Source: Ruditapes philippinarum
Taxonomy: Eukaryota
Length of the DNA stretch: 64,000 bases
NCBI RefSeq assembly: GCF_026571515.1
Contig: NW_026862330.1
Location: 186,001-250,000, forward strand
Direction of reading: 5' to 3'
Position 1 is the first letter of the stretch. Each line of letters opens with the position of its first letter. A program made the position numbers and the translations under genes. The notes under the pieces are model-generated. The model saw only the letters and a list, made by a program, of their open reading frames with translations. It was not told the origin of the DNA and ran no database searches. Shown here one piece after another: positions 52,501 through 63,028 of this stretch.

Positions 52501-55327
52501 TGGGAAAGTCCGCACAAATCGCCTTGAGTAAATCAGAACAAATATGCAGTGTAAATTTGGAAACGGAAGAAAACTTTCCATTTTTTGGAGAGAGTCCGTC
52601 TCTGAACGGCTTGAATTCCTGTAAAATTTACAGGGATGAACTGAATTTTGGAATAATATTAAGTTGGATTTCCATTTGTCATTTTAAAATTACAAATTGA
52701 AATCCATGAATTTCATTGGCTTCATTTTCTTTCAATTCTCAATTCTTAAATAATCAAAAGGAGTTTCGAAATCAAACTTTTTAGTTAAATTTCTCGGATA
52801 TTTGAGAAAATATTATGTGAATTGTGCTTTCTCCTATTAAAAATTTTACAACATTTTACACAACTTAAAAAAATTCTTAATTCTTTGGTGAACAGTTTAT
52901 TCAATATAAAAACATTACTGAGTTATCAATGGCATTTTATAAGTTTGTCCATTAATAACGCTTTCGATCCCTGAAATGCATGTGCATGCGCAACTCCGAA
53001 ATAACCTGAGCAATTTAAACCAGTTTTACTTCGGCCGAGTATCTTTTTTAAAGATACTTTTTGTTTGAACTTAACCTTTCAATGTTCCTGGCATTTGCCT
53101 TATTTCTGTTTAACATATTTAAACAAATTTCGCCGTCTCTGATAATAGGAATAAAAGTGGAAGTACCTACAATTTTCTGTTTCAGGAGTGTTTGCTGATC
53201 CATTCAACCCATGTAAGGTTTGTATATGTTGCAAAACTGGAATCTATACGTGCACCGTAAGAAAATGTCCAAAACCAAAGTGTGGTGAAAAGTTACAAAC
53301 ACTAGCTTCAAACGGCTGTTGTATGGAATGTCCAAAAAGTTGCAAAAAAGAAAGGAAGAATTGTCCGAAACTTAATTGCCCGAAGAGGCGTTATGCATAT
53401 GGAGAAACGGCCTGTTGTCCGTCTTGTGGATGTGTTAACTTTCCCAGTAATGCACCCCCAGGTAACTTATTTGTTACAGCAAAATTAATTCAAAATCAGA
53501 AATAAATTTAAGATGATCATTGTTATTTTTCAATGTTAAAGCTTGAAAAACATCCTCATTTGGATAGGTCAAGATCCAAAATTCAATATACAAGTAAATA
53601 AAACATGCAAACTAGAGTTATTCTGTTTGACATCTTCGTAATTTAATATGACAAACGATTTAGCACAATCATGTACGTATTACACATAAAATAGGAAATT
53701 GCGAGTAGGAAATTACTTACTAATAATTTACATATATTTAAAAATGTTGAAACCACTATTTAATTTGTAGGCGACTTTGGAGAAGAGTGTGCGAATTGCG
53801 TATGTAATCCCGGAGGTCCCCCATATGATGGGGATGGAGAAATTACGTGCAACCGTCCACCATGCCCTGACACTAAACTGGAATGTGTTGACCCTATATT
53901 TAACGAAAACTGTGAATATAAATGCCCTCAAGGTGAGCGTTCTTTTAGTATACACATACAAGATACAACAGGAAACTAACACTACAACAATGAACTAATG
54001 TGATGTTCCAAAAACTCATACCTGTCTTTTTCAAAAGTTAAAGTCCAGTATGTCCTGGATATGTGTTCATATAAAGATGATTACTACTACGAAAGTTGTA
54101 TTGGACTTCAGCTTTTCTTAATGTTAAATATATTGTTTTTAAATTAATCTACTCATACAGTTGTTCAATCAAAGGGATTAAGGTGGAAAATGAAATTTAC
54201 CGGCGATAAAATACATCAACAATAATGAAACCTGCTGATACCTCTAATCTATCATTCCGCTCTCATTATCAAAATAAGTAAAGCGAATGATTAGTTTCCC
54301 GATCTTCTATTTTTCAAAACGAATATCACTGGCGGTTATAGAAAATAGCTCTCGGGACGCTGTTTGGAAGAACTGTGATTAAATGATTATTCCATGATGA
54401 AAATACTAAAATATTTGGTTTGAAACAACAGAGAATTTATTCTGAACAATAAATAAATGCTGAAGGCCGCTTAAATGAGCGTGATTAGCAGTAAATATGA
54501 AATAAAGGGATTGTGTATTAAACAATAACATATTGTTAATCATGATATAATTATTCACCTTAACCATCTGGCAGTAATAGACAACAACAGTCATCTAGAA
54601 TAATGATAATAGTAACACTTGAATACTAGTACACAAAATGTGCAAGTATATACTTTAGGCCAAAATGTATACGAAAGTGAATCTTTAACATTATGCTCTT
54701 GTATTTTCAGGGCCAACATGTAGAAGAGGAGATCTCATCATCAAAAAAGGTGAGCCGCAACTTTTAGGCGATAAAATTTGTGTCTGTGAAAGAAACTATT
54801 ATCCACGTGCGTTCTGTGTGACTGCGAATCCGTTCGAACGAAAATTAAAGAAGTTAGTAGATCACAAATGTGTTGCCCCAATAGAAGATCAAAAGAAAAA
54901 GTTTCGTAAATCTACAGGAAAAGCCAAAGAGCCGGGAAGTGGCGTAAGCAGTGCAGGAAAGGGAAGTAGTACAGGTTCAGGCTCTCCTAGCACGAAAAGT
55001 ACAAGTTCAGGCAAAATGAGCGGAACGCCATCAAGCCAAAAGAGTACAAGTTCAAGCAAAATGAGCGGAACGCCATCAAGCCAAAAGACTACAAGTTCAA
55101 GCAAAATGAGCGAAACGCCATCAAGCCAAAAGAGTACAAGTTCAGGCACAATGAGCGGAACGCCATCAAGCCAAAAAAGTACAAGTTCAGGCAATATGAG
55201 CGGAACGCCATCAAGCCAAAAGAGTACAAGTTCAGGCAAAATGAGCGGAACGCCATCAAGCCAAAAGAGTACAAGTTCAGGCAAAATGAGCGGAACGGCA
55301 TCCAGCAAAGTCTCGGGAAGTACTTAA
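49594..55327 (+). CDS. Secreted VWC-domain protein C with Thr/Gly-repeat N-terminal domain and 15-aa Ser/Thr repeat tail, intact, 545 aa. Exons 49594-50176, 53186-53461, 53771-53932, 54711-55327
   Basis: Signal peptide [19 protein letters not shown]. Phase-1 GT-AG introns at the same positions as genes A/B. Cys pattern [24 protein letters not shown]...CCMEC...CCPSC...CANCVC...CPQGPTC...CVC...YPRAFC. AATAAA at 55372-55377. An acceptor-like AG at 49591-49592 implies an upstream non-coding exon. Confidence 0.9.
55001..55310 (+). repeat. Coding 45-bp tandem repeat, ~7 units ([15 protein letters not shown])
   Basis: ACAAGTTCAGGCAAAATGAGCGGAACGCCATCAAGCCAAAAGAGT units. Confidence 0.95.
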
Positions 55328-61600: not shown

Positions 61601-63028
61601 ATATAAATGCCCTCAAGGTGAGTGTTCTTTCAGTAACCACACACACGATACAAAATGACTCTAACACTATAAAGCAATTAACAAATGTGATGGTCCGAAA
61701 ACTAAAGTAAAAGCCATGTTTGACCAATTTCATTCCTAGATATGTGTTCATAAACAAAAATCATTTTTACTATGCAAATTTAAAGCGACCTTAAAATTTT
61801 TTGTAAAGGTAAAACATGTTATTTTTAGATAAATCGTTTCATATAGTCAAATCAAAAGAATTAAAGTGGGAAATGAAATTGATGAAATACAAAAACAATA
61901 AGGGAACCCCTCGATACCTTTAACATACCGGTCTGCTTTCTATATTTAATAAAGTGAAGAGAACGATTCATTTTCAGATTTTTTAGAATCGAACATTGAC
62001 GCGTTATAAATACTCTCGGACGCTGTTTTGAAGAAGGCTAAACAGTAATATGCTTCATTTTCCAAAATAAAAGTACTGAAATACTTGGTTTGAAACGACA
62101 CAAAATTGTTTTTTCAACAGAAATCAAAAGCTGAAGGCCGCTTTAATGAGCTATTAAAAGTGTTTATGAAATGAAGGGATTGTGTTTTTAATAAATTACA
62201 CGTTGTTATCATGTATTTAATTATTCACCTTAAGAATCAGTCAACAATAGTCATTTAGAATTCCAAAAGAGAGTTGAAAGGATGGTAACATAAACCGAGT
62301 TAAATACATTTATTGTTTTAAAATAAACAAATCATTTCGTATATAAGTTTATTCACTTGAAGACTAGTACACAAAGTGTGCAAGTATATGATAACTTTAG
62401 GCCAAAAAATGAATAGTTATCTATACGAAAGTGAATTTTTAACATTATGCTCTTGTTTTTTTCAGGGCCAACATGTAGAAGAGGAGATCTGATAATCAAG
62501 AAAGGTAAGCCGCAACTTTTAGGCGATAAAATTTGTGTTTGTGAAAGAAACTTTTACCCACGTGCGTTCTGTGTGACTGCGAATCCGTTCGAACGAAAAA
62601 TAAAGAAGTTAATAGATCATAAATGCGTTGCCACGATAGAAGAACAAAAGAAAAAGTTTCATAAAGGAAAAGCCAAAGAGCCGGACAGTGGCGTAAGCAG
62701 TGCAGGAAAGGGAAGTGGAAAGGGTAAAGGCTCTTCAAGCAAGAAAAGTAAAAGTTCGGGCAAAATGAGCGGAAAGTCTTCTAGCAAAAAGAGTAAAACT
62801 TCGAGCAAAAAGGGTGGAAAGTCATCAAGCAAAAAGAGTAAAAGTTCGAGCAAAAAGTCATCTAGCAAAAATAGTAAAGGTTCGAGCAAAAAGAGCGGAA
62901 AGTCATCAAGCAAAAAGAGTAAAAGTTCGAGCAAAAAGAGCGGAAAGTCATCAAGCAAAAAGAGTAAAAGTTCGAGCAATAAGTCATCCGGCAAAATCTC
63001 GGGAAGTAAAGGCAGTAACAAAAGTTAG
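58681..63028 (+). pseudogene. Secreted VWC-domain protein D with Ser/Lys-rich tail, paralog of C, with an in-frame stop in exon 2. Exons 58681-59056, 60879-61154, 61456-61617, 62466-63028
   Basis: Same signal peptide and exon structure as C. AAA>TAA at 60956-60958. Splice sites all intact. AATAAA at 63183-63188. Could be a null allele or be rescued by skipping exon 2. Confidence 0.75.

Follow-up and report, generated by a model that had tools for sequence, protein, structure and literature searches.

Tandemly duplicated VWC-like genes with a shared tail repeat differ in lysine content across tail and core in Ruditapes philippinarum

Two four-exon genes arranged in tandem

We analysed a 64,000-nucleotide stretch of AT-rich animal DNA (the window; G000:C10817:186001-250000, from a genome of 1.41 Gb), in which the encoded proteins carry database labels of Ruditapes philippinarum (Manila clam). 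Two neighbouring four-exon genes on the plus strand, C (49594-55327) and D (58681-63028), are tandem duplicates with canonical splice sites and a preserved frame, and their Cys-rich cores and repetitive Ser-rich tails differ in lysine content. Self-comparison of the window revealed two duplicated blocks, in which 47.5-55.5 kb matches 55.7-63.3 kb, and 18.5-31 kb matches 32.7-44.4 kb. Gene C is open throughout and encodes 545 amino acids (aa). Gene D has 458 codons and the exon phases of gene C, with one in-frame TAA. Both proteins share a layout of signal peptide (predicted by inspection from an identical hydrophobic leader of 19 residues), Gly/Thr/Ser arm, VWC-like Cys core (211 aa, 31-32 Cys) and Ser-rich tail.

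Exon 1 of gene C (49594-50176), modelled from its ATG, GT donor and composition, encodes the predicted signal peptide, a (Gly-Thr)n arm and a short Ser/Lys stretch. Cys-rich VWC-like modules follow in exon 2 (53186-53461; Pfam VWC E = 0.022, under the cut-off) and a Cys-rich module in exon 3 (53771-53932; AG/GT ends, frame preserved), and exon 4 (54711-55327) encodes the end of the Cys core, a linker, the tail and a TAA stop. In gene D, exon 1 (58681-59056) encodes the predicted signal peptide, a shorter Gly/Thr/Ser arm and the Ser/Lys stretch, which is longer by one 12-bp unit. Exon 2 (60879-61154) carries the Cys-rich modules with 22 differences from C, exon 3 (61456-61617) differs from C at 13 positions, and exon 4 (62466-63028) encodes the core end, a Lys-enriched linker, the tail and a TAG stop. 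The RefSeq model of gene D (XP_060558370.1, 287 aa) begins at an internal Met past the in-frame stop, and its exon 2-4 junctions are identical to those of our model. RefSeq labels this protein ‘nucleolar protein 56-like’; a Nop domain is absent and no Pfam family was found on a truncated model of the XP_060558370.1 type (P0003), and the label likely reflects just the Lys-rich tail. A 21-bp non-coding tandem repeat lies 5′ of both genes (49049-49345 for C, 57122-57820 for D) and is ∼3-fold longer before D.

The tail repeat is homogenised gene by gene

The initial annotation had described a single 45-bp coding repeat homogenised into two chemically different tails. Unit alignment confirmed the common repeat, which lies in one 15-codon register in both genes. 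The C array (54998-55312) consists of seven 45-bp units, with a lag-45 identity of 0.93 compared with 0.35 in codon shuffles (0/2000 shuffles reach the observed value). The D array (62747-62998) shares this register but is not a plain 45-bp array: its units measure 45-45-36-45-45-36 bp, i.e. (45-45-36)x2 with 9 bp missing from two units. Its lag-45 identity is 0.74 (0/2000 codon shuffles) and its best lag is a higher-order period of 126 bp, with an identity of 0.90. All tail length changes between C and D are multiples of 3. When the D-tail DNA was searched against its own genome, it matched C and D alone, and no haplotig copy was seen.

Four sites are fixed between the arrays: codon 2 (ACA/AAA, Thr/Lys), codon 4 (TCA/TCG, silent), codon 10 (ACG/AAG, Thr/Lys) and the first base of codon 11 (C/G versus T). 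All five single-base differences quoted previously exist, and those at codons 2, 10 and 11 are among the fixed sites, but ATG/AAG and CAA/AAA are not fixed, as D unit 1 keeps the ATG of C (Met, codon 7) together with a Gly, and C unit 7 keeps the AAA of D (Lys, codon 14) where the inner C units have CAA. The Thr/Lys differences at codons 2 and 10 are parallel but retain different third bases, and so represent two separate events.

Mean unit distances are 0.079 within C, 0.113 within D and 0.219 between the genes. Gene label was the best of 1716 partitions of the tail units, and in the unit tree the D units form one clade, with a bootstrap of only 71 and with D1 and C7 nearest the join. Hence, intermixing of units between genes, named beforehand as an observation that would count against the proposal, was not seen. 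In conclusion, the tail repeat has been homogenised separately in each gene by concerted evolution, units being closer within than between genes. Deviant array ends are usually read as edge units escaping homogenisation. Because the edge units D1 and C7 keep the state of the other gene, our data suggest that change occurred in both genes, with D gaining Lys at codon 7 and C losing Lys at codon 14; the one-way conversion of the tail envisaged previously is too simple.

The contrast between a Thr-rich and a Lys-rich tail is real (Thr 16% in C versus 1% in D; Lys 11% versus 34%; Ser 41% versus 48%), but it is one of degree, as the C tail is already cationic, with a net charge of +11 in 109 aa (+0.10 per residue) compared with +32 in 93 aa (+0.34) for D. 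Nor is the C tail, previously called mucin-like, a typical neutral mucin: compared with mucin Pro/Thr/Ser domains, it has 57% Ser+Thr, 6% Pro and 11% Lys in only 109 aa, and C exon 4 has no Pfam match.

The lysine shift extends across the whole protein

Over the 209 codons of the core, silent divergence (dS) is 0.18 and replacement divergence (dN) 0.058; the resulting dN/dS of 0.33 reflects purifying selection, and dS is close to the C/D intron divergence (0.18-0.24). Other than the stop, 26 core residues are replaced (25 listed in the protein alignment), and eight of these are Lys in D while none is Lys in C (two-sided P = 0.008). The same direction was observed in the non-repetitive linker, where 3/6 differing codons give Lys in D (3:0), and further Lys residues of D lie in exon 1 (two) and at the C-terminus (one). 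When Lys differences at separate aligned positions were counted by hand, excluding the Gly-Thr repeat, which cannot be aligned, 18 had Lys in D and 1 had Lys in C (P = 8e-5). Net charge rises from +10 (C) to +20 (D) in the core and from +36 to +69 in the mature protein.

Mutational A-bias was ruled out as the cause of this shift, since the 330 non-coding differences have A in D at 100 and A in C at 104. Repeat turnover, to which the initial annotation had attributed the change, is not sufficient alone, because core and linker shift in the same direction without a non-coding A-bias. Paralogues A and B (described below), used as a control, differ at 11/209 residues, with Lys at 2:1.

In the 21 outgroup rows, the residue of C is commoner than Lys at 6/8 core Lys sites. 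A protein tree, built without three exon-2-only fragments, has a branch of 0 for C and 0.15 for D. Together, these comparisons suggest that the core changes were mostly gains in D. Eleven of the 13 changes in exon 3 are replacing, five of them to Lys in D, and two are silent (Fisher P = 0.046 versus other exons); this replacement excess is no proof of positive selection. Exon 2 of D also carries the radical changes P>L, R>W and T>P.

A null allele of gene D segregates

The in-frame TAA of gene D lies in exon 2 at 60956-60958 of this assembly. Eight sequencing runs were compared with the locus, four of which span position 60956. In run X1, one contig (60311-61158) reads T, giving the stop and ruling out an assembly error as its origin; X1 is the best-matching run, may be the assembly's own sample and is not counted as a second carrier. 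The position reads A (AAA, Lys) in two contigs of X3 (one of them running from D intron 1 into exon 2), four contigs of X10 and 3/3 reads of X21. At the 90% likeness setting used, some of these contigs may belong to gene C, but X3 and X10 show no T. The TAA is thus a segregating null allele, with intact alleles in other samples. A gene D that is never translated, which had been named as a refutation of the earlier proposal, describes the assembled allele but not the gene, as three of the four covering runs read AAA. A Gly>Cys change at 60977 occurs only on the TAA haplotype.

In exon 3, D-type pieces from X3 and X10 have one and three other letters, respectively, compared with the 13 C/D differences. 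Decay of the null allele as the source of the Lys gains was ruled out for this exon, since the same Lys residues occur in the intact-allele runs X3 and X10. The start of the D Lys tail (62570-62845) has 0-2 other letters in X1, X10, X15, X16 and X18. A metagenome protein, P0008, has a C-type exon 2 followed by read-through into the D intron. At this place, a stretch of 79 bp (61076-61154) is the same in both genes, and P0008 may represent a gene conversion tract, a hybrid allele or an assembly chimera; we did not accept it as evidence for a hybrid allele, as the join lies inside the identical stretch and a chimera is possible.

A run search returned one run on record as RNA that contains the stretch, with a share of 0.05. 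Contigs from X15, X16 and X18 were rejected as evidence of D expression: they start at 62283/62404, continue unspliced through intron 3 and past the 3′ end, and leave exons 1-3 without depth. Such unspliced contigs over D exon 4 onward (62283-63500) occur in three runs guessed to be RNA and have ends near minus-strand AATAAA motifs (62309, 62348). Downstream of D on the minus strand (L008 3100-8700) lie two small signal-peptide-like exons without a Pfam match. A minus-strand 3′ untranslated region might overlap D in antisense, or the unspliced contigs might be DNA.

A VWC-like core shared with heterodont relatives

The core is VWC-like. Against the Pfam VWC gathering cut-off (PF00093, 27.6 bits), exon 2 of C alone scores 15.5 bits, paralogue B 26.3, Mactra P0009 39.6 and Mya P0005 98.6, and the truncated gene D model has no match. 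The Cys pattern typical of VWC, with ∼10 Cys spaced as CxxCxC and CCxxC, is invariant in two family alignments, and the core of C holds 31 Cys. Fold searches agree, although without significance. For a predicted structure of paralogue B (predicted local distance difference test [pLDDT] 66, predicted template modelling score [pTM] 0.39), the best rows were NELL, mucin, VWF, CCN3 and collagen vWC, none at E ≤ 0.001 and with Z ≤ 2.9, and in an Atlas structure search the first matches were VWC clusters (0.84-0.86), which serve as a lead only. Kielin/chordin regulators of bone morphogenetic proteins have long VWC arrays together with VWD or CHRD domains; here the core is only 211 aa and the Pfam scans gave no VWD or CHRD match.

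When exon 4 and exon 2 were searched against the clam's own genome, each gave seven matches. The paralogues comprise tail-less A (23775-28103) and B (38323-42270) in the window, whose proteins are 95% identical, two copies on C6367, one on C12876, two exon-2 copies on C15540, and E; they share their exon layout with C and D. At the exon-1 donor, B reads GT but paralogue A reads GA (23899-23900), and the RefSeq model of A begins in exon 2, so that A is likely another broken allele in the cluster. At E ≤ 0.001, a profile search yielded 36 proteins, and those named among the 20 looked up came from Mya, Mactra, Mercenaria, Dreissena and Ruditapes; among named matches, the family is confined to heterodont clams. 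Heterodont small VWC proteins bearing the automatic RefSeq labels ‘kielin/chordin-like’ or ‘brorin-like’ share the Cys-spaced core of C and D, with E-values to 1e-105. Most family members lack a tail, whereas C and D are armed at both ends. A homologue search among longer proteins with residues 1-75 of C exon 4 gave 0/23 candidates. The D core, searched at near lengths, recovered only D's own model among 12 candidates; neither an orthologue with a tail in a different clam nor a copy derived from a spliced transcript was found. Literature searches found no study of the heterodont family; subscription papers and supplements lay outside these searches, so the family may already appear in proteome tables of shell, foot or mucus.

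Paralogue E lies on the plus strand 65 kb beyond the window (G000:C10817 ∼313521-317250; L015 5521-9250) and encodes a predicted signal peptide, a 525-aa N-terminal Lys/Ser tract and the same Cys core. The tract has ∼13 near-perfect 63-bp units (Ser 39%, Lys 29%, 29 KxxK motifs) and contains His and Glu. A protein of Mactra antiquata (P0009, KAL4222213.1) likewise joins this core to a long polycationic Lys/Ser tract (Ser 30%, Lys 27%), behind which lies a Glu/Thr tract; its signal-peptide start is near-identical to that of E. Mya P0005 and P0007 carry Ser/Gly tracts (Ser 44-47%, net negative) and Dreissena P0038 a Ser/Gly/Lys tract, and the position of the tract on the core varies among relatives. 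In the tree, the Mactra, Mya and Dreissena rows cluster with E, away from C/D (93/96 support). Because E sits in another branch of the tree, the D tail arose separately. The Lys/Ser tract of E and Mactra is older than the D tail and unrelated to it, and that of E differs from it in unit length and in lying N-terminal to the core.

Other features of the window lie around A and B. Copies of VOMI (Vitelline membrane outer layer protein I) occur on the minus strand between the VWC-like genes (∼13900-14560, 18890-20030 and 33090-34150; Pfam VOMI E = 2e-20 for one exon) and were duplicated along with A/B. Between the VOMI and VWC-like genes are 27-bp tandem arrays (21732-22832 and 36194-37379), one of which contains a minus-strand Cys/Tyr/Thr frame, open for 275 codons, that has no start and is likely non-coding. 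Open frames at 45130-45924 (minus) and 40595-40975 (plus) resemble transposase fragments by eye.

Discussion

The account that we favour, with some doubt, is that, after the tandem duplication, D probably reached about twice the net positive charge of C by selection for Lys at many separate sites, while repeat homogenisation would have spread four of the C/D differences along the tail. The C and D proteins may belong to an extracellular matrix, a mucus or an adhesive. Their disulfide-bonded core would cross-link or bind partners, and their disordered arms would set the electrostatics. D would then bind polyanions more strongly, such as acidic or phosphorylated proteins, sulfated glycans, and mineral or microbial surfaces, and C, richer in Thr, would be the form more open to O-glycosylation. 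Family members may exchange differently charged Ser-rich tracts on a common core, and point changes may have brought D to a Lys/Ser composition already present in paralogue E.

Several observations weigh against selection for Lys in D. When all charge-changing core sites are pooled, the bias is weaker (10:3, P = 0.09); the 18:1 count was made by hand after the pattern had been seen, which makes the core alone the fairer test; and at 2/8 core Lys sites the outgroups favour the Lys of D. The outgroups are ∼1 change per site away and polarity comes from outgroup residue counts and branch lengths only, so that the direction of change has weak support. Overall dN/dS remains below 1, and in exon 3 the proportions of replacement and silent change (pN 0.086, pS 0.063) rest on two silent changes, with pN under the intron divergence (0.16-0.21). 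The null allele of D segregates, and one X10 contig reads A at 61057, turning TGT into TGA (61055-57, exon 2), in sequence that is not assignable to C or D at 90% likeness; it is a possible second nonsense allele. Finally, no spliced D read or contig was found in five runs that are RNA or guessed to be RNA (X15, X16, X18, X21 and X23; exons 1-3 without depth in four), of which the two raw runs were examined for only 4% and 6% of their reads. Narrow tissue or stage expression and silence of D are both compatible with these data. As the null allele segregates, D is likely dispensable in part at present.

A rival account is neutral turnover, in which a few chance mutations were spread by unequal crossover through a weakly constrained spacer, with D redundant and becoming a pseudogene. 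We regard this as rather unlikely. It would fit an array with just four fully fixed sites and a unit divergence (0.22) near that of the introns (0.16-0.21), a TAA allele that is real in X1 and possibly joined by a second stop in X10, the radical exon 2 changes, the longer D branch, the donor also lost by paralogue A, and the absence of D transcripts from the runs examined. Yet relaxed constraint predicts no direction, whereas the core has an 8:0 Lys difference beside unbiased non-coding DNA; its low dN/dS and the two independent Thr/Lys events at codons 2 and 10 also argue against this explanation. We consider it improbable that change in the arms ran the other way, from a Lys/Ser-rich ancestor like E, with C losing Lys under selection towards a Thr-rich glycosylated form. 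The AAA at codon 14 of C unit 7, the SSKK-type stretch kept by both genes at the end of exon 1, the age of Lys/Ser tracts in the family and the expanded Gly-Thr repeats in the N-terminal arm of C are all compatible with such a direction. Against it, D unit 1 retains ATG at codon 7, the core sites mostly indicate gains in D, and E is not the sister of C/D and carries its tract at the opposite end, in units of a different length.

Membrane-active peptides usually contain hydrophobic residues, and clams build carbonate, not silica. Silaffin-1 carries phosphoserine and polyamine-modified Lys and precipitates silica. A third explanation, in which the tail of D is freed from the protein as a silaffin-like or antimicrobial effector and acts alone in mineral precipitation or on microbes, appears very improbable to us. 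The D array does resemble silaffin-1 (R5) in its Ser/Lys/Gly composition and has eight KxxK motifs (the C array has none); KXXK clusters and phosphoserine are given as silaffin marks, in repeat units that end in RRIL/RRNL processing motifs (PMC4557024), and VWC proteins have been discussed for invertebrate immunity (PMC5854119). The D array, however, has 0% Arg and no Tyr, and so none of the RRIL/RRNL processing ends; the tail lacks hydrophobic residues; it is joined to a VWC-like core; and the charge of that core changed as well. In agreement with the initial annotation, the likeness to silaffin is not one of homology and is compositional only, in a protein with a VWC-like core whose named matches are heterodont clams.

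The KRMP and shematrin families are repetitive low-complexity proteins of mollusc shell. Like the repeat domains of mollusc shell and byssus, C and D are fast-evolving and predicted to be secreted, but in C and D the charge shift reaches the folded core. According to PMC5854119, secreted low-complexity domains of molluscs evolve fast by slippage and recombination and are often attached to a folded domain, and oyster shell contains a VWC-repeat protein of unknown role. The closest architectural precedent is the ascidian papilla adhesive protein APAP-2, which combines VWC-like domains with Ser-rich sequence, has adhesion data and is proposed to be phosphorylated or O-glycosylated (PMC12817120). 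APAP-2 belongs to another phylum and is likened here by its described architecture. A link to mussel byssus (mfp-16 to -19; VMO1 neighbours) was rejected, as neither the accessible part of PMC7018715 nor the literature search supported it, and the accessible part of PMC8902148 holds nothing specific to the C/D family.

Fast change in low-complexity arms of mollusc proteins is already known, and such arms are usually too scrambled for tracing. The present comparison adds a shift to Lys that spans the whole protein and a family in which charged Ser tracts are reused. C and D are recent duplicates in the same register, so each change is countable, and the folded core provides an independent check that charge, and not slippage alone, has diverged. 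The present scope is a modest evolutionary case study. A broader reading, which we consider rather unlikely, is that heterodont clams possess a family of secreted VWC-like rods that assemble by charge into adhesive, mucus or matrix. Their interchangeable Ser-rich arms would be oppositely charged, some polycationic (Lys/Ser), others acidic (Ser/Asp or Glu/Thr) or near-neutral (Thr/Gly), with D a recent, independent polycationic re-invention through protein-wide Lys selection. If this is true, D, its sister copy and the null allele would form a natural on/off test of polycationic Ser/Lys tails. The segregating null, together with tail-less, acidic-tailed and Lys-tailed paralogues, would make this family a tidy system for charge patterning in a secreted protein.

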